Part shown: in pieces, positions 2,603 through 10,735 of the stretch | Position numbering within the stretch: the first letter of the stretch is position 1 | How the letters are laid out: each line of letters begins with the position of its first letter | IMG/VR virus record: IMGVR_UViG_2541047122_000029 | DNA length: 39,214 nt | Strand: one strand, 5' to 3' | DNA from: a virus | Lineage: Duplodnaviria > Heunggongvirae > Uroviricota > Caudoviricetes | Translations under genes and position numbers: made by a program | The notes under the pieces: generated by a model | Told to the model about the DNA's origin: nothing | Database searches by the model: none | What the model saw: the letters and a program-made list of their open reading frames with translations, nothing else

Positions 2603-3535
2603 ATGACTGATATTAACGATGTAATCAAGACCATTGATGAACTTATTGATGGCGGCGTACTGACACAGTATGCCATCGCCAGAGAGGCGGGAATTTCCGA
2701 CGGCACATTATCGGCTTTCCGTAAGGGAAAATATAAAGGCGATAACGCTGCTGTGGCTGCTTCCCTGCGTTCCTGGTATGAGAACTGGAATAAACAAAGC
2801 GCACTGCCGGAACCGCCGCAGTTTGTGGAAACGCAGACAGTCCAGGAGCTGCGCACACTGTTTCAGGCGGTTCGTCTGATGGGCTGTATTAACGTTATTG
2901 TGGGCGTACCGGGTGTGGGTAAAACGGCCACTGCCCGTAATTACTGCCAGGAGCAACCAAACACCTGGATGATCACCCTGTCACCCGCGCACTCCAGCGT
3001 CACGGAGTGTCTGCTGGAGCTGGCCGATGCGCTGGGGATTGATTACACCCGCGCGAACAAAGGGGCATTATCCCGCGCCATCCGCCGTCGCCTGATGGGA
3101 ACGCGTGGACTGGTGATTGTGGATGAGGCGGATCATCTTGGTATTGACGGTCTGGAGCAACTCCGGGCAATTCAGGACGCCACGGGGATCGGGATGGTGC
3201 TTATTGGTAACCCGCGCGGATTGTTTAAAGGTGGACGCCGCGCCTTTGATGATTTATCGCGCCTGTTCAGCCGTCTTGCCCGTACAAAACAACTTCGCAA
3301 GGCCAAAAAGGCGGATGTGCTGGCCATTGCCAGGGCGTGGGGGATCAGTGGTGAGGCCGAGCTGGCCGTCATGCAGGCTATCGCTGAAAAGCCGGGAGCG
3401 TTACGCGTTCTGACACATACGCTTAACCAGGCGTGGCTCACCGCCAGCGGTGAAGGTGCGGCGCTGACAGAAAAACATATTAATGCGGCCTTTAAAGAGG
3501 TTTATACCAACCCTGAATTACTCTCACAGGTGTGA
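2603..3535 (+). CDS. B: Mu B-like transposition ATPase / target DNA activator
   Basis: 310 aa; N-terminal HTH, Walker A GVPGVGKT, IVDEADHL Walker B-like motif, conserved LPEPPQFVETQTV; matches Mu B organisation. Confidence 0.9.
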   Translation: MTDINDVIKTIDELIDGGVLTQYAIAREAGISDGTLSAFRKGKYKGDNAAVAASLRSWYENWNKQSALPEPPQFVETQTVQELRTLFQAVRLMGCINVIVGVPGVGKTATARNYCQEQPNTWMITLSPAHSSVTECLLELADALGIDYTRANKGALSRAIRRRLMGTRGLVIVDEADHLGIDGLEQLRAIQDATGIGMVLIGNPRGLFKGGRRAFDDLSRLFSRLARTKQLRKAKKADVLAIARAWGISGEAELAVMQAIAEKPGALRVLTHTLNQAWLTASGEGAALTEKHINAAFKEVYTNPELLSQV

Positions 3536-3759: not shown

Positions 3760-4026
3760 ATGAGGTGTTATATGAATATGCAATCCTGCGGTAACAAAAT
3801 GAATTTATTCGACTCCCTGAACAGCGCGCGCCGTCTGACCGAACTTGCCGGTGCGGTACTGGAACGCAGTAAGCGCTATCCGCAACGTTTTGCACTGAAA
3901 ACCACGCCGCCGGTAGGCAACGTGCAGGGAACCGGTGAAATTGAAATCACCATACAGACCAACGGCCTGCGCCGCCGTGTGAAGGCCACCCGCATCAGCG
4001 GCTGCACGGTTTACTGGGAGGTGTGA
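3760..4026 (+). CDS. Hypothetical early protein
   Basis: 88-aa ORF. An internal ATG at 3772 preceded by GAGGTG may be the true start. Confidence 0.5.
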   Translation: MRCYMNMQSCGNKMNLFDSLNSARRLTELAGAVLERSKRYPQRFALKTTPPVGNVQGTGEIEITIQTNGLRRRVKATRISGCTVYWEV

Positions 4027-4887: not shown

Positions 4888-5418
4888 ATGGCAAAACGCG
4901 TTACAAAATTAAAGGCCGCAGCCGAGGCTGCACCGCAGACCCGCGAAGAGGTCAGCCGCGATATCCGCACCCTGGGCGATATTCAGCGAGAGGCGCTGCG
5001 GCTGGAAACGGCGATGAATGATGAAGTGGCAGAAATCACCGCCCGTTATACGCCGCAAATTGAAAACCTTAAAAAAGAAATCAAAGTGCTTTTTAAGGGG
5101 ATTCAGGACTGGTGCAAAACCAACCGAGATGAGCTGACGAACGGCGGCAAAACAAAAACTGCCAATCTGACCACCGGCACGGTGTCATGGCGGCTGGGAA
5201 ATCCATCATGCAGCGTCAGCCGTGATGTGGAAGGCGTGATTGAAATGCTGCGCCTTATGGGGCTTGAGCGATTCATCCGCACGAAAGAGGAAGTGAACAA
5301 GGAAGCCGTCCTGGCGGAGCCGGATGCGGTGAAAGGCATTGCCGGTATAAAGGTGAATAAAGGCGCTGAAAGTTTTTATGTCGAGCCTTTTGAACAGGAC
5401 GCCGGACTGAATAAATAA
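4888..5418 (+). CDS. gam: Gam-like host-nuclease inhibitor (DNA-end binding protein)
   Basis: 176 aa; ...RLETAMNDEVAEI..., ...NRDELTNGGKTKTANLTTGTVSWR..., ...FIRTKEEVNKEA... match Mu Gam as I recall it. Confidence 0.85.
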   Translation: MAKRVTKLKAAAEAAPQTREEVSRDIRTLGDIQREALRLETAMNDEVAEITARYTPQIENLKKEIKVLFKGIQDWCKTNRDELTNGGKTKTANLTTGTVSWRLGNPSCSVSRDVEGVIEMLRLMGLERFIRTKEEVNKEAVLAEPDAVKGIAGIKVNKGAESFYVEPFEQDAGLNK

Positions 5419-5515
5419 CACCACATTAAATCTTTAAATATCACATCGTTTTAATTATGGCGCTCGCGTCAGGGGACTGCCTGCGCCTGAAAGCTGAAAA
5501 TAAGGAATCGGAAAC

Positions 5516-6058
5516 ATGGCATATTTTTATTTCAAATTAGACATAGTGTACACAAATAAATATTTAACCGAATATCAGCGGGATGTTTTACCGCTACGCA
5601 ACAGTATTCTTCGGGCATTACTGAAAAATACAGGCGCTGCCGGATTGCGCTTAAAGCCGTTCGCCATGGACGTAATCAGTGAGTTTTATTTTTCTGGTTC
5701 TCTGCCTGCGGGCTGGCGTAAGCGCGATGATGTGGCTTTTATCGGGGGCGGACCGTGCTTTATTGCCAGACCTGATGAGTCATGCCCTGAAGGTCCGGCG
5801 ATTGCCGCAATGGTTGAAGCCGCTGAACGCGAGTTAAGAAAGCGTCCTGATTTCCTTGTCTGGCTCTGTGAAAAGCTGGGGGTAATGAGAATCCCCTCCA
5901 TGTTTAACACGGACTCCTGGTGGACCCCGTCACTCTCCCGTGATGCCCTGTGCGTGGTGTTTAAAGTAGGAACTTATGGCAGGGAAATAAAAGGGGGTAT
6001 TCCTGAAGAATGCCAGGAGATTAAACATTCTGAATATGTGGCGCTGACGGAGGAATAA
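5516..6058 (+). CDS. Hypothetical early protein
   Basis: 180-aa ORF after the only intergenic gap in the early operon (5419-5515); RBS TAAGGA upstream. Confidence 0.6.
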   Translation: MAYFYFKLDIVYTNKYLTEYQRDVLPLRNSILRALLKNTGAAGLRLKPFAMDVISEFYFSGSLPAGWRKRDDVAFIGGGPCFIARPDESCPEGPAIAAMVEAAERELRKRPDFLVWLCEKLGVMRIPSMFNTDSWWTPSLSRDALCVVFKVGTYGREIKGGIPEECQEIKHSEYVALTEE

Positions 6059-6061
6059 TTC

Positions 6062-6595
6062 ATGATTGATGCAAAAGTGCTTGAAGGGGTTAAAAACTGG
6101 CTGCGTATTTACGGACGTCTGACCTGCGGTATTCTGGCTGAAAAAATGAATATGCCGCCATCCTCCATGGTTTATTTTCTGCGTGATGCGGTTGATGCAG
6201 GCGTGCTGACGGAATGTAACGGTTTTTATGATATTCCGCGTCCCCGCCCGGTGCAGCCGGTTCGTCGCAAATGCAGCCAGGAGTCTGCGGCTGATGATGT
6301 TCAGTGGTGCAGCTTCAGAAAATCCCTGCCGTGGATTGAAGGGCATGATATTCCGTCGATGGCGTGGGAATTTGCTCAGGGCGTGCTGACCTGTGAAACC
6401 GTTTATGTGGTGGCTGAAGTTGATGAGCAGGCCATGAAAGAAGGCGTGCCCCAGTTTGTGATGTCGTATATCGACATCCGCCTGGGCGTCATTATCTGCG
6501 GTTTAAGCGGCTGGAATATCACCTCGCGCGTTCTGCGTTACCTGATTGTTGACCGGACGGCCGCGCCTGCCGGGATATCAGCGGAGGTGGCGTAA
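6062..6595 (+). CDS. Hypothetical early protein
   Basis: 177-aa ORF packed 3 nt after the previous stop. Confidence 0.6.
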   Translation: MIDAKVLEGVKNWLRIYGRLTCGILAEKMNMPPSSMVYFLRDAVDAGVLTECNGFYDIPRPRPVQPVRRKCSQESAADDVQWCSFRKSLPWIEGHDIPSMAWEFAQGVLTCETVYVVAEVDEQAMKEGVPQFVMSYIDIRLGVIICGLSGWNITSRVLRYLIVDRTAAPAGISAEVA

Positions 6596-7110
6596 TGTTC
6601 TTTAAAACATCAAACCCTTCCGCGCTGGCTGCGTGGCAAAAATACCAGCAGGACTGCCAGACGGTAAAAGATGAGGCGAAACGCCTTGAGGCCGTGCTGA
6701 ATGTTGCGTGCCGGTCGGTATTTGAATTCAGTATCAGTGGTTTTTGTTTTAAGGGACTGCGTTTTACGGAGGACAAATATCCTTTTCATCGTGATTTATG
6801 GCGAAAACCAACTGCGTCGAATGGCTGGAGCTGCACACCGCGCACATCACGTATTCCCAAAGCCCTGCGCGTTGCCTCTGACGAACTTAACAGTCTGTGG
6901 CGTGAATATTCGCCCGTCACGTATGCCAGAACCGATGCACTGTTGTTCTGGCTGGGCATTGATTTCTCGGCAATCCTGTTTGGCCCTGTGGAGTGGTTCT
7001 GCGTTGACGATGTGATTTACCTTCAGTGCGGCGTAAAACCCGCAAAACAGAAAATGACCGAAATTCTGTCTGATGAGTTTTATGCTGCTGAAAAGCGAGT
7101 CAGGGGGTGA
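6595..7110 (+). CDS. Hypothetical early protein
   Basis: 171-aa ORF; start overlaps previous stop (TAATG). Confidence 0.6.
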   Translation: MFFKTSNPSALAAWQKYQQDCQTVKDEAKRLEAVLNVACRSVFEFSISGFCFKGLRFTEDKYPFHRDLWRKPTASNGWSCTPRTSRIPKALRVASDELNSLWREYSPVTYARTDALLFWLGIDFSAILFGPVEWFCVDDVIYLQCGVKPAKQKMTEILSDEFYAAEKRVRG

Positions 7111-7113
7111 TGC

Positions 7114-7665
7114 ATGATGATATTACAACCCATGGGGAGAAAAGGCCGTGCACCCGCTCATGTTCGCGCATGGACACCTGAAGAAGATGCGCTGCTGATT
7201 GCGCTTTATCCATCCACCCCGGTTAAGGATATTGCTGTCAGGATAAAAAGAAGTTTCTGGGGTGTACATAACCGGATTGTTTTATTACGCGGTACTTACC
7301 CGGAGTTGCTCAAATGCAAACGCCTCAGATTTAAACCTGATGAAGATAAATTTATCCGAAAAAATGCCAGAACAATGACCGGTAAGCAAATAGGAGAATA
7401 TCTGGGGCGAGACCGGGATTCTGTCCACAATCGGGCGCGATATATTGGCGTAAGCATGAAAAAATACGGAGAGTTGCTGCCCTTCACCCGCATACCTGAC
7501 GATGATGTTCGTCTTATTCGTGAATTACGGGATGCTGAATCACCACGGCGTCTTACCTTTAGGGAAATCGGCGAGAAATTTGAATTATCCGAGGGCACGG
7601 TGAGTTTTATTTATCACCGTCGTCGGACTGCCGAAGATGTTGTATTACGGGAATTAATGCCATGA
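7114..7665 (+). CDS. Hypothetical protein with three tandem HTH-like repeats (putative DNA-binding)
   Basis: 183 aa; three repeats of about 45 aa (WTPEEDALLIALYP.., KPDEDKFIRKNARTMTGKQIGEYLG.., DDDVRLIRELRD..LTFREIGEKFELSEGTV); RBS GGGGGTGA upstream. Confidence 0.6.
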   Translation: MMILQPMGRKGRAPAHVRAWTPEEDALLIALYPSTPVKDIAVRIKRSFWGVHNRIVLLRGTYPELLKCKRLRFKPDEDKFIRKNARTMTGKQIGEYLGRDRDSVHNRARYIGVSMKKYGELLPFTRIPDDDVRLIRELRDAESPRRLTFREIGEKFELSEGTVSFIYHRRRTAEDVVLRELMP

Positions 7666-7973
7666 TAACGACATTATTTGTTGAATCAGATGAACCCCTT
7701 GTGTGTGCCGTCGGAATGCCGGTCTGTGGCGGAACGCTGACCGGTGTTTATTTCGGGGATTTGCGCGGTTATCCCTGGCATTCACTGAATGATGCTTTCC
7801 CGCCTGATATGGAGGCTGTCGTGCTGATTGTTCAGTATGGTGACCAACAGGAACTGCGCATCGGCCATATGGGGTATGAAGGCTTTTTTATTGATGAAGA
7901 AACCGGAGCCTGCCTTGAAGATGAGGACGGACAGGTGACGCACTGGTGCCATATTTCAGCTTTACCGGAATGA
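7662..7973 (+). CDS. Hypothetical early protein
   Basis: 103-aa ORF overlapping the previous stop by 4 nt. Confidence 0.55.
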   Translation: MITTLFVESDEPLVCAVGMPVCGGTLTGVYFGDLRGYPWHSLNDAFPPDMEAVVLIVQYGDQQELRIGHMGYEGFFIDEETGACLEDEDGQVTHWCHISALPE

Positions 7974-8338
7974 CGGGAGGTGAATGCGTGAGAAGTTATA
8001 TTGATAATGAAAAACTGAAGACAATCAGCGACTGTCTTAGCTTGCTGGCAAAAATAAAAGAAACCATTGAAGAGATTAAATTTCAGCTTGAATACGAACC
8101 CTGTGGCGATGATACATGGCGTAACTCTGCCAGAAAAGCACTGGCTGTCTTTCAGAAACAACGCCGGACTGTTGAATACCGCCTTGCTGTATTGCGCCAG
8201 GAGGAAAAGGAAAGAAATATAAGACGTCATGAACTCGTTAATGATTTTCTTGTTCGTGAATTAAAGGAGCGTGTGCCGGAGTCGGTATTTTTTGAGTGTG
8301 AGGCTGTTGCCCGTAGCAAAGCACTGGAAACTGATTAA
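7970..8338 (+). CDS. Hypothetical early protein
   Basis: In-frame ATG at 7970 overlaps the upstream stop (ATGA); track ORF 7946-8338 begins earlier; alternative GTG 7988 after GGGAGG. Confidence 0.5.
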   Translation: MTGGECVRSYIDNEKLKTISDCLSLLAKIKETIEEIKFQLEYEPCGDDTWRNSARKALAVFQKQRRTVEYRLAVLRQEEKERNIRRHELVNDFLVRELKERVPESVFFECEAVARSKALETD

Positions 8339-8350
8339 ACAGGCAGGTGA

Positions 8351-8686
8351 ATGATGAGTATTGAATTAAGATCGTCTTATGAATATCGTAAAATTCTCAT
8401 CGCCGGAGGCATGAAACCGGAAGATGCAGAAAAAATTGTTTCTTTTATGGATAAAGAATGTGACAAACGGGATATGCCAGAAATTATTATGGATGACATG
8501 ATTCTGCATTCAGCCGTAGCGTTAAGCCCGTTATGGATTGTGCATTCTCTTGCTGAAATTGCCAAAGGCACCGATAAACAGGCAGCTGTTGCTGCCCTTC
8601 AGACGCTTAATGAAATGCGTATATCTCCACGCCCGACATTAATACATATGATTCTCTCCAGTATGGAGGATAAAGCAAATGAATAG
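8351..8686 (+). CDS. Hypothetical early protein
   Basis: 111-aa ORF; AGGTGA RBS before the start. Confidence 0.55.
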   Translation: MMSIELRSSYEYRKILIAGGMKPEDAEKIVSFMDKECDKRDMPEIIMDDMILHSAVALSPLWIVHSLAEIAKGTDKQAAVAALQTLNEMRISPRPTLIHMILSSMEDKANE

Positions 8687-8876
8687 TCTACCCGCTGGAT
8701 GGGCGCGGCCACTAATGGCCAGGAAGCATCATTTTTTTAAAACAGGCGAAAATATCAGTATATGTGGACGGTGGTTATATCTGGCTCATAATCGCGAGCC
8801 GGATACATTTGAAAGCCCTGATGACTGTGCCGAATGCCGCAGAAGAGTGAATAAGGAGAAAGATAATGGACAATAG
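8679..8876 (+). CDS. Hypothetical small Cys-containing protein (possible zinc ribbon)
   Basis: 65 aa; Cys at ICGRW and CAEC; overlaps both neighbours. Confidence 0.45.
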   Translation: MNSLPAGWARPLMARKHHFFKTGENISICGRWLYLAHNREPDTFESPDDCAECRRRVNKEKDNGQ

Positions 8877-9162
8877 TTCTCTGTTGTTCTGGTGCTTATA
8901 TATCACATCCTTTTTCGGCGCATTTGTTATTACCCGGTGGTTATGTCGAAAAATCATCTGCTTTTTTGATAAAAGACATCCGGTTGAACGGGCGGCTGAT
9001 GCGCTCATTCAGCAGGCCATTGTGTTATATAGCGGTGAATTTTTCTGCCGAATAACAACCAGAGATGGCTGGCACATAATGATTATTCCACCAACACACC
9101 ATGCCCGGTGGGATGAGGCAGAAAAGGCTTTCCATGTCCGTAAAAAGGTAAATACGGTATGA
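8866..9162 (+). CDS. Hypothetical protein with N-terminal transmembrane helix
   Basis: 98 aa; hydrophobic N-terminus LLFWCLYITSFFGAFVITRWL. Confidence 0.5.
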   Translation: MDNSSLLFWCLYITSFFGAFVITRWLCRKIICFFDKRHPVERAADALIQQAIVLYSGEFFCRITTRDGWHIMIIPPTHHARWDEAEKAFHVRKKVNTV

Positions 9163-9668
9163 GAGGAAAACTGATATCCGCCATTCATGTGGCAAAGCGC
9201 GAGCTTGCCCTGGATGATGAGACTTATACATCCGCGCTGCTGGCAGCCACCGGCAAAACCAGCTGCCGGGATATGTCACCGGATGAGTTATCCCGCGTGC
9301 TGGATGTTTTCAAAAAACGCGGTTTTAAAGTGCGCCAGAAGCCGGTTAACCAGGCCTTAAAACCGGGTACGGTGACCGCCAAAATTCGTGCCATCTGGAG
9401 GGTGATGCACCGGCAGGGCTTTATCTCTGATGGTGCGGAAACCGCCCTTAACCGCTGGGTGAAATCGCAGACGGCCGCGCAGAACGGTGGCGAAGGTGTG
9501 GCAAACTGGCAGTGGCTGGAGCAACACCCCGCCCTGGCCTCAGATGTGCTGGAGCGTCTCAAGCGATGGCACCGCCGCAAAATGCTGGCCGCGATGGGAA
9601 TGCCCGAACGCACGCTGATGGGGTATGACGCCGTTTGCAGGCAGTATGAAAAATCACTTCCCCGTTAA
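9159..9668 (+). CDS. GemA-like protein (Mu gp16-like)
   Basis: 169 aa; N-terminal ...LISAIHVAKRELALDDETY... resembles the Mu GemA family as I recall it; last gene of the early operon, before a strong terminator. Confidence 0.55.
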   Translation: MRGKLISAIHVAKRELALDDETYTSALLAATGKTSCRDMSPDELSRVLDVFKKRGFKVRQKPVNQALKPGTVTAKIRAIWRVMHRQGFISDGAETALNRWVKSQTAAQNGGEGVANWQWLEQHPALASDVLERLKRWHRRKMLAAMGMPERTLMGYDAVCRQYEKSLPR

Positions 9669-9672
9669 CCCC

Positions 9673-9706
9673 AAATCCCGCCACAGCGCGGGATTTTTAT
9701 TTTAAA
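9673..9706 (+). terminator. Rho-independent terminator ending the early operon
   Basis: Perfect 9-bp stem AAATCCCGC (9673-9681) / GCGGGATTT (9688-9696), 6-nt loop, then TTATTTTAAA. Confidence 0.8.
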
Positions 9707-9737
9707 CTTACCGGGAACGCGAGAACCGGAGGCTGAT

Positions 9738-10163
9738 ATGGCAGAAACTCAGATGAGCATGTTTGGTGGTGACAGTGAGCAACTGCACGCCCTTATCGAC
9801 CGCCTTGATGACATCCCTGATGATGTTCTCAAAAAGAACTGGCCACGGACCCTGTCAGAACTGGTTGAAGTCACCGGCGCAGAACTTCAGCGTCAGGGGA
9901 TTGAGCCGGTACTGGCCGGTAAACTGGCACGCAAGGTGGCTGCGGCTCAGGCCGCCTATATGGGCGGACGGGGTTATTACCTGCCGGTCGGGGAATCTCT
10001 CTTTGCCGAGCTGCGAAACAATGAGATATTTTCGCGCTGGGACCGGGGCGAGAAAATTGAATCCCTTCGCCGACATTACCGGATGTCAGAAACCCAGATT
10101 TATACCGTCATACGTGAACAGCGCCGTCTGCATCTGGCAAGAACGCAACCGCCACTTTTCTGA
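9738..10163 (+). CDS. Mor/C-family transcriptional activator (middle/late gene activator)
   Basis: 141 aa; resembles Mu Mor/C (acidic N-terminus, C-terminal HTH ...SETQIYTVIREQRRL...). Only one member of this family is present in the window. Confidence 0.75.
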   Translation: MAETQMSMFGGDSEQLHALIDRLDDIPDDVLKKNWPRTLSELVEVTGAELQRQGIEPVLAGKLARKVAAAQAAYMGGRGYYLPVGESLFAELRNNEIFSRWDRGEKIESLRRHYRMSETQIYTVIREQRRLHLARTQPPLF

Positions 10164-10167
10164 TATT

Positions 10168-10181
10168 CCGCAAAGCCTGCC
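10168..10181 (+). promoter_or_regulatory. Candidate activator-binding motif of the lysis/late promoter
   Basis: CCGCAAAGCCTGCC, 54 bp upstream of the endolysin ATG; near-identical motif at 18095-18108 upstream of gene I. Confidence 0.4.
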
Positions 10182-10234
10182 GCCTTTCCTTCACCGTTAC
10201 GCTGACTCAGAGAACATCATGAGACAGCGTAACA

Positions 10235-10735
10235 ATGCCAAAACTCCCCGCACCACTGCGTAAAAAGCTGATTGCCCTTGTTCTGGCCGGTGCCGGGACG
10301 TTCACGATTGCCACGCATTACACCGGTTACTGGGAAGGGAAAGAAAACTCCACGTATATCGATCCCACCGGTACACCCACCATCTGTTACGGCCATACCG
10401 GCCCGGATGTGAAACCGGGTATGACCCTGACGGATGAAGAATGCCTGGAACTACTGGAAAAGGACATGAAATGGGCCTTTGCGGCCATTGATCGGCGTGT
10501 TCAGGTGCCGCTTACCCGTGGTCAGACGGTGGCGCTGGCTTCGTGGATCTTCTGGGCTGGTGAAACGAACTTCCGCAACTCCACGCTTCTGCGCCTGATC
10601 AATGCCGGGCAGATGCCCGCGTCCTGTAAGCAGTATATCCGCTGGATTTATTCAAAGGGGGTGAAACTTCCCGGCCTTGAGGCCCGCCGTTCGGCGGATG
10701 AATGGTTATGTCGCTACGACTTGCCGAAAGTCTGA
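10235..10735 (+). CDS. SAR endolysin (phage lysozyme, T4-lysozyme/GH24-like)
   Basis: 166 aa; N-terminal weakly hydrophobic signal-anchor-release segment LIALVLAGAGTFTIATHY; YWEGKENSTYIDPTGTPTICYGHTG contains the Glu-Asp-Thr catalytic pattern. Confidence 0.85.
   Translation: MPKLPAPLRKKLIALVLAGAGTFTIATHYTGYWEGKENSTYIDPTGTPTICYGHTGPDVKPGMTLTDEECLELLEKDMKWAFAAIDRRVQVPLTRGQTVALASWIFWAGETNFRNSTLLRLINAGQMPASCKQYIRWIYSKGVKLPGLEARRSADEWLCRYDLPKV

Follow-up and report, generated by a model that had tools for sequence, protein, structure and literature searches.

The 39,214 nt stretch of phage DNA analyzed here (IMG/VR virus record IMGVR_UViG_2541047122_000029, referred to as the window) is a Sp18-type Mu-like prophage of Escherichia coli, and our subject is a block of nine small open reading frames (ORFs), designated O1 to O9, which is located between its genes gam and gemA. 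We consider it likely that this block corresponds to the accessory half, from gam to gemA, of the "semi-essential" early region of Mu-type phages. As judged from the comparison of related loci, it consists of an ancestral core (O2 and O3, accompanied by O4 in the lineage of the window) and a zone of exchangeable single-gene cassettes (O1 and O5–O9), and does not represent one acquired module. The window is 100% identical to loci in chromosomes of E. coli O157:H7, and Mu-like prophages of this type were found in 232 of 5426 complete E. coli genomes (about 4%), many Shiga toxin (Stx) producers included.

Gene content and operon context

The nine ORFs, which are 65–183 amino acids (aa) long, occupy positions 5516–9162 on the + strand, exactly between gam (4888–5418, + strand) and a gene of the GemA family (9159–9668, + strand; PF06252, E-value 5e-30). 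This agrees with an initial reading made from the DNA alone (the sequence-only reading), which had described nine tightly packed ORFs between gam and a gemA-like gene. The junctions from O1 to O9 are, in this order, +3, −1, +3, −4, +14, +15, −8, and −11 nt, followed by −4 nt into gemA (RefSeq starts). RefSeq annotates the same nine coding sequences, and a Shine–Dalgarno (SD)-like site precedes all nine starts. All nine ORFs match PHROG families (E-values from 1e-32 to 1e-105), and their exact sequences are found in public protein clusters of 233–2247 members. The ratio of nonsynonymous to synonymous substitution rates (dN/dS), computed against close relatives, is 0.09–0.18 for eight of the ORFs and 0.44 for O1; B, gam, gemA, and mor fall into the same range as the eight (0.05–0.17). 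The PHROG matches, the SD-like sites, and the dN/dS values indicate that O1–O9 are real genes under selection and not chance ORFs. Protein clustering at 90% identity puts the unrelated O1 and O2 (5516–6595) into one cluster of 2247 members. This joint cluster is probably a database artifact from a fused or read-through sequence, which matters for member counts.

The gene order of the window (ner-A-B-...-gam-[block]-gemA-mor-lys) is that of Mu, with A at 441–2531 and B at 2603–3535. Gene order and strand match, and Gam and GemA could be identified, so that the assignment of the block to a Mu-type early region by the sequence-only reading is confirmed. Its transcription with the early operon, also proposed there, fits the sequence: all genes are on the same strand, and a terminator scan of the + strand revealed no convincing terminator within the block. 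The first clear one is a hairpin at 9673–9696 (+ strand; 9-bp stem with 5 GC pairs, then TTATTTT) just 3′ of gemA, where transcription of the unit containing the block probably ends. In that case, the early promoter would drive the block along with ner, A, B, and gam, in one string of translationally coupled genes. The sequence-only reading had regarded the 97 nt between gam and O1 as the sole gap between genes of the early operon. This does not hold, as A and B are also separated, by 71 nt; the gam–O1 gap is the largest.

Conserved core and exchangeable cassettes

The arrangement of the gam–gemA interval was compared over 32 related loci, among which at least six arrangements were found. O2 and O3 are both present in all 32 loci. 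O1 is present, replaced, or absent, and O5–O9 occur in at least six combinations, so that there are natural relatives which lack O1 and O5–O9 in various combinations. Such presence, absence, or replacement of cassettes is seen among prophages which are 90–99% identical in the flanking genes. Alternative cassettes are homologs of Mu gp13 and gp14, or a 61-aa membrane ORF. A relative with 95% identity (locus L186, LC727881.1) has eleven genes, of which two are extra (2444–2853) and are located exactly at the ATGA junction between O4 and O5. They code for a 61-aa membrane protein and a 75-aa acidic protein, and all joins are ATGA stop/start overlaps, which indicates that cassettes are inserted such that translational coupling is kept. 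In more distant Mu-like prophages, the gemA match lies between about 50 bp and about 2.9 kb past the end of gam, compared to 3.7 kb in the window. From the block, only O2 is recognizable there (35–38% identity).

The G+C content is 0.40–0.45 in O6–O9, compared to 0.57 in gemA and 0.55–0.60 in most of the late region and the rest of the phage. The genes O5, O6, O8, and O9 have no counterpart in Mu, are richer in A+T, and vary among near-identical prophages, in which each of them may be present, absent, or replaced. The description of the block as accessory, given in the sequence-only reading, is thus adequate for the distal cassettes, which are variable, have a low G+C content, and in the case of O6 and O8 have relatives elsewhere. 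It is not adequate for O2–O3, which are ancestral.

O2 (6062–6595, + strand, 177 aa) has an N-terminal domain followed by the domain Gp11_C. It is 67% identical to Mu gp11 over the full length (tblastn, E-value 1e-73), and its residues 90–167 match the full profile of PF25754 (Gp11_C) with 132.8 bits against a cut-off of 27 (E-value 5.6e-39). It is the sole block gene with homologs in the more distant Mu-like prophages and is also kept in prophages from Kluyvera and Pantoea. O3 (6595–7110, + strand, 171 aa), the start of which overlaps the stop of O2 by 1 nt, is the ortholog of Mu gp12 (55% identity over the full length, tblastn, E-value 4e-61). Its family (46 matches) is confined to E. coli and Salmonella, and all 46 homologs carry a precomputed match to PF26885, including 95%-identical cluster representatives. 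The AlphaFold2 model of O3 is of fair quality (predicted local distance difference test [pLDDT] 83, predicted template modeling score [pTM] 0.79). The other four models reached about 63.

O4 (7114–7665, + strand, 183 aa, isoelectric point [pI] 10.2) has three repeats which resemble helix-turn-helix (HTH) motifs and is a predicted DNA-binding protein. It matches phrog_323 ("transcriptional regulator, D5-like"; E-value 6e-58). Weak Pfam HTH matches are just under the threshold (Sigma70_r4 with 23.3 bits vs. 24.1, an AsnC-type HTH with 21.5 vs. 27, and a weak match to Myb). The repeats resemble DNA-binding modules that in mycobacteriophages form fusions with HNH or methylase genes. Residues 66–166 align with the whole of Mu gp9 (32% identity, E-value 2e-9), the gene of which is located upstream of gam in Mu, whereas O4 is downstream of gam in the window. 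No locus of the window's own lineage lacks O4, which exists there as two alleles (95% and 73% identity), but the gene is absent from the gam–gemA interval of Mu, D108, SfMu, and the Yersinia phage vB_YpM_3 (YpM3).

These core genes are the basis for an alternative explanation, in which the block products are phage-internal helpers that raise the efficiency of Mu transposition or replication, or regulate the timing from early to late expression. O2–O3 are conserved in Mu, D108, SfMu, and the lineage of the window, with O2 reaching further into Kluyvera and Pantoea; O4 is basic, has multiple HTH-like repeats, and is related to Mu gp9; and classical genetics has described non-essential early functions which stimulate Mu replication. 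However, close relatives do without six of the nine genes, which makes these dispensable in nature, the more distant Mu-like prophages are nearly empty between gam and gemA, and no homology to replication or transposition proteins was detected. We consider it possible, but rather doubtful, that this explanation applies to the block.

The first cassette, O1 (5516–6058, + strand, 180 aa), occupies a variable slot. It is 41% identical to SfMu gp11 (tblastn), which is annotated as DUF5420. O1 itself is devoid of any Pfam match even at E-values up to 10, yet a profile that includes O1 retrieves proteins annotated with PF17457 at an E-value of 6e-71. O1 is thus a divergent relative of this family and not a scoring member. 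The O1 family has 36 matches, some of them with PF17457/DUF5420, and is limited to E. coli and Salmonella; its alleles may be as little as 24% identical. The AlphaFold2 model of O1 is confident (pLDDT 91, pTM 0.82). When compared to viral models with Foldseek, it retrieved three unnamed phage proteins (template modeling score about 0.7, 16–18% sequence identity), which suggests that the predicted fold recurs in phages, where it carries no annotation. A paralogous relationship between O1 and O3 was considered and rejected after negative results with BLASTP and hhalign; a likeness in the order of secondary structure elements remains only as an observation.

O5 (7662–7973, + strand, 103 aa, phrog_6925) is an optional cassette, being present or absent among the relatives. 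It is highly acidic (pI 4.1, with 18 acidic and 2 basic residues) and a near-orphan, as there are 14 representative clusters among 1.84 billion proteins. One cluster member is named DUF551 in UniProt. This assignment could not be reproduced, as there was no Pfam match at E-values up to 10 and no precomputed Pfam match on homologs or remote representatives; a 981-aa hit met during this check is a spurious protein with fn3 repeats. The same label would have linked O5 to Ea22 variants of Stx phages.

Three further optional cassettes follow. O6 (7988–8338, + strand, 116 aa, predicted to be helical) has a GTG start in RefSeq with GGGAGGTG upstream. The longest ORF begins at 7946, and the match of phrog_6158 to residues 15–130 of this long ORF fits the start at 7988. 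Homologs with about 40% identity occur in the phages Fraca, AsXd-1, SaltyDalty, and Fostie; the one from Fraca is encoded directly upstream of xis-int in an accessory operon. O7 (8354–8686, + strand, 110 aa, phrog_1988) is 34% identical to SfMu gp14 (tblastn) and likewise to proteins of Mu-like phages from Yersinia. O8 (8679–8876, + strand, 65 aa, phrog_2358) contains three cysteines. Its homologs (33–45% identity) were found in 195 phage records, mostly from PB1-like virulent Pseudomonas phages; in PB1, the homolog is part of a run of small genes which are annotated only as conserved hypothetical.

The variability of these cassettes leads to a second alternative, according to which one or more of them code for a dedicated anti-defense protein, so that the block would be an anti-defense island beside the RecBCD antagonist Gam. 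The prime candidates are O5, O1, and O6–O9. Consistent with this are the presence/absence pattern and allelic replacement among near-identical prophages, the dN/dS of O1 (0.44 vs. 0.08–0.18 for its neighbors) together with its alleles of only 24% identity, and the low pI of O5, a trait of many protein or DNA-mimic inhibitors. Further points are the low G+C content of the distal part, the fact that O6 and O8 are related to genes from early accessory regions of unrelated phages, and the early expression context beside gam. Both Gam and GemA have been reported to act on DNA ends and on RecBCD access in the Mu-like Pseudomonas phage JBD30 (bioRxiv 10.1101/2025.08.30.673261). Known anti-defense clusters such as the anti-CRISPR loci of Mu-like Pseudomonas phages resemble the block in having small variable early genes and an HTH protein in the string. 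They differ in that the block products show no likeness to known members, either in sequence (anti-defense families represented in Pfam) or in fold (models of O1 and O3); moreover, the anti-CRISPR locus of Mu-like Pseudomonas phages is in the late (head) region, unlike the block. Variability and acidity are generic to phage accessory genes of any function, O2, O3, and O4 are conserved rather than variable, and none of the genes is linked to a particular defense system. An anti-defense role for the block is plausible on circumstantial grounds, while the specific proposal of a dedicated anti-defense protein is a tentative one, which we think is less likely to be correct than to fail.

The last cassette, O9 (8866–9162, + strand, 98 aa, phrog_17269), the stop of which overlaps the gemA start, is also optional and comes in two alleles. 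Among the relatives, the identity of the allele is 100%, 90%, or 51%, or the gene is absent. It has an N-terminal hydrophobic segment (residues about 5–23; Kyte–Doolittle maximum 1.82 at residue 5). This transmembrane-like segment, together with alternative arrangements that contain another small membrane ORF, would be compatible with the distal genes being "morons" which benefit the lysogen (e.g., by superinfection exclusion through O9) and the expression of which in the repressed prophage would rely on promoters of their own. A promoter scan revealed four weak promoter-like sites on the + strand at 8366–9080, in the AT-rich distal part. However, these have just 9 of 12 matches, and such sites are fewer over the whole region than in shuffled sequence (7 vs. 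11.6 expected). The genes are start/stop-coupled to their upstream neighbors, a terminator–promoter bracket as is typical for morons is lacking, and PADLOC gave no match. Because of the coupling and because there are no credible promoters, we consider this explanation the least likely and improbable.

Mu itself is among the closest known systems. Its gam–gemA interval (gp11–gp15) has the same position in the operon and the same element following gam (see below), and its gp11 and gp12 have orthologs in O2 and O3. In some close relatives of the window, homologs of gp13 and gp14 take the place of O6–O9. The interval is 1.9 kb in Mu, with four forward genes and one reverse gene, compared to 3.7 kb and nine genes in the window, and O1 and O4–O9 have no counterpart in the Mu interval. 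The sequence-only reading had attributed host-takeover functions to this region of Mu; the host-takeover genes of Mu (kil, gam, and gemA), however, lie outside the gam–gemA interval. The Shigella phage SfMu carries homologs of O1 and O7 in the same slots (first past the gap, and distal to gp12–gp13). The identity is low, and SfMu retains Mu gp13, gp14, and gp15 while being devoid of O4, O5, O6, O8, and O9. The SfMu genes in question, ORF11 and ORF14, are listed as not being present in Mu and D108 (PMC4406740). The early accessory regions of temperate phages, such as the lambda exo–xis region (PMC10834534), are comparable in that they consist of small, early, non-essential genes which are mosaic and mostly have no assigned function, and a homolog of O6 resides in such a region of Fraca. 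They differ by their lambdoid as opposed to transposable architecture, and no common genes besides O6 were found.

The sequence-only reading had assigned no function to any of the nine ORFs. It is correct that none of them is characterized, and the ORFs do not each correspond to a characterized Mu early protein with a housekeeping function, because Mu gp9, gp11, and gp12 are themselves "hypothetical" in RefSeq, except for a predicted regulator label on gp9. It is too strict in view of the domain Gp11_C in O2, the orthology of O2 and O3 to Mu proteins, and the prediction of O4 as an HTH protein. Among the nine ORFs, Pfam yielded only Gp11_C (O2) and the sub-threshold HTH matches (O4), with nothing for O1, O3, and O5–O9 at E-values up to 10 in a Pfam copy that does not contain PF26885, and the PHROG families are mostly unnamed. 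NCBIfam gave nothing above noise. With PADLOC, the only hits were at E-values of 0.01–0.035 and below 14 bits, none of them matching a defense protein. A single-sequence search of the PDB with eight ORFs (all but O3) found nothing significant, and for O2 a profile query did not reveal a relative either. A literature search retrieved no function for Mu gp11–gp14, DUF5420, or the early genes of the prophage in the window, and we know of no function for the Mu gam–gemA interval (gp11–gp15) since its sequencing.

Under our preferred reading of the block as an accessory half with core and cassettes, its products would most likely be non-essential early accessory proteins which act within minutes of induction or infection and condition the host as well as protect or promote the transposing phage DNA. 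O2–O3, always paired with a 1-nt stop/start overlap, and in the lineage of the window also the gp9-like O4, may serve the phage's own early program or act on host DNA; O2 and O4 would be DNA-binding factors. The cassettes O1 and O5–O9 resemble the accessory early genes of other phages in their behavior, and recombination of Mu-like prophages with each other and with other phages would add, remove, or exchange them with precision at the stop/start junctions. Candidates for protein inhibitors are the acidic O5 and the fast-evolving O1, and O9 may be a small membrane protein. The reported action of the flanking Gam and GemA on DNA ends and RecBCD access in JBD30 is in line with this reading.

Several points weigh against this reading. 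The Pfam, NCBIfam, PADLOC, and PDB sequence searches provided a function for none of the nine ORFs, and the predicted models of O1 and O3 have no fold match in the PDB. That the block is dispensable for the phage is probable, but is carried over by analogy from classical Mu genetics. The conservation of O2–O3 throughout Muvirus is equally compatible with a function internal to the phage (e.g., an aid in replication or transposition) instead of a host-directed one. Finally, the distal genes may be expressed independently from the weak promoter-like sites.

At present, our findings describe a region of a known kind without adding a function to it. This type of region has long been known from Mu, and its genes carry annotations in hundreds of genomes and belong to PHROGs. 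What is new is descriptive: the distinction between core and cassettes, the exact behavior at the junctions, and the conserved element after gam. The separation of the core (O2–O3, with O4 in its lineage) from the cassette zone guides experimenters as to which genes should be tested first. Should a cassette turn out to have a counter-defense activity, it would found a new family and show that transposable phages keep such genes beside Gam.

The conserved element downstream of gam

The gap between gam and O1 (5419–5515, + strand) contains an AT-rich tract (TTTTAATTAT), an imperfect GC hairpin at 5459–5487 (+ strand; GGCGC-TC-GCGTC-AGGG-GAC(T)GC-CT-GCGCC), and the SD site of O1. In order (5434–5490 in the window), the motifs are the AT-rich tract with TTTTAATTAT at its end, GGCGC, GCGTCAGGG after a short spacer, and GCGCC after another spacer. 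The element occurs once in the window. The same gap and motif are found 3′ of gam in Mu (gap 6326–6423, element 6326–6400), D108, SfMu, and YpM3, and the element is also present in this position in prophages from Kluyvera and other Enterobacteriaceae, the Gam proteins of which are only 54–58% identical (7523–7590 in locus L043; also in L045 and L046). It adjoins gam in 26 further IMG/VR loci with a Gam identity of 52–99%. The motif scan of IMG/VR was too loose, as 92 of 118 hits were unrelated GC-rich DNA, and only the 26 gam-adjacent hits were used. In Mu-like prophages from Orbaceae, Pseudomonas, and others, the element is not present and the next gene starts at once.

The sequence-only reading had taken the gap as a sign that the whole block was acquired as a module. 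This is not supported: the occurrence of the same element after gam in Mu, D108, SfMu, Yersinia, and Kluyvera indicates that the gap is ancestral and conserved and not an insertion scar, and O2–O3 are ancestral Mu genes. The likeness between loci stops right after GCGCCTGAA, a few bases past GCGCC, and beyond this point the sequence depends on the next gene. This may be O1, its 24%-identical allele, a 14-codon remnant, or gp11 directly. At most, the element would form a fixed boundary on the left side of a single variable slot, namely the position of O1. In the Kluyvera-type Mu-like prophages (L043 7609–7875, L045 7609–7884, L046 7580–7846), the gene after the element codes for a protein of 88–91 aa with an acidic tail (…EDEDDE), which is unrelated to O1.

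An RNA structure, a promoter, and an intrinsic terminator were considered for the gap. The 5-bp outer stem is invariant across the compared loci, so that there is no covariation evidence for the hairpin, and the RNA fold is not more stable than that of shuffled sequences (z = −0.5); the RNA structure was dropped for these two reasons. An Rfam search gave no match. Neither a promoter nor an intrinsic terminator was detected by the scans: there is no promoter-like match, the hairpin is followed by TGAAAGC and not by a T-run, and the terminator scan did not report it. To our knowledge, a conserved non-coding element downstream of gam has not been described. It is conceivable, though on the unlikely side, that at least one cassette (the acidic orphan O5, or the fast-evolving O1 with its confident predicted fold unlike solved structures) is a new anti-defense or host-takeover effector and that, in addition, the conserved hairpin after gam is a regulatory signal, not described so far, that determines how the accessory half of the Mu early operon is expressed.

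Neighboring early genes

The region following the block is arranged differently from Mu. In the window (9669–10235), the strong terminator at 9673–9696 and a 69-nt gap separate gemA from mor, whereas the two genes overlap in Mu and D108, with the terminator placed after mor. The Mor-family gene (9738–10163) is directly followed by the lysozyme gene (10235). No homologs of gp18–20 or C were found between these two genes, which suggests that the regulatory cascade is shorter than that of Mu.

Upstream of gam, the second small early ORF past B (3760–4026) shows a weak likeness to Mu Kil (33% identity over 39 residues, E-value 3e-4) and may be a Kil-like gene. The 71-nt intergenic region between A and B (2532–2602) contains a 13-bp palindromic hairpin (2539–2568), which was scanned as terminator-like on the minus strand.

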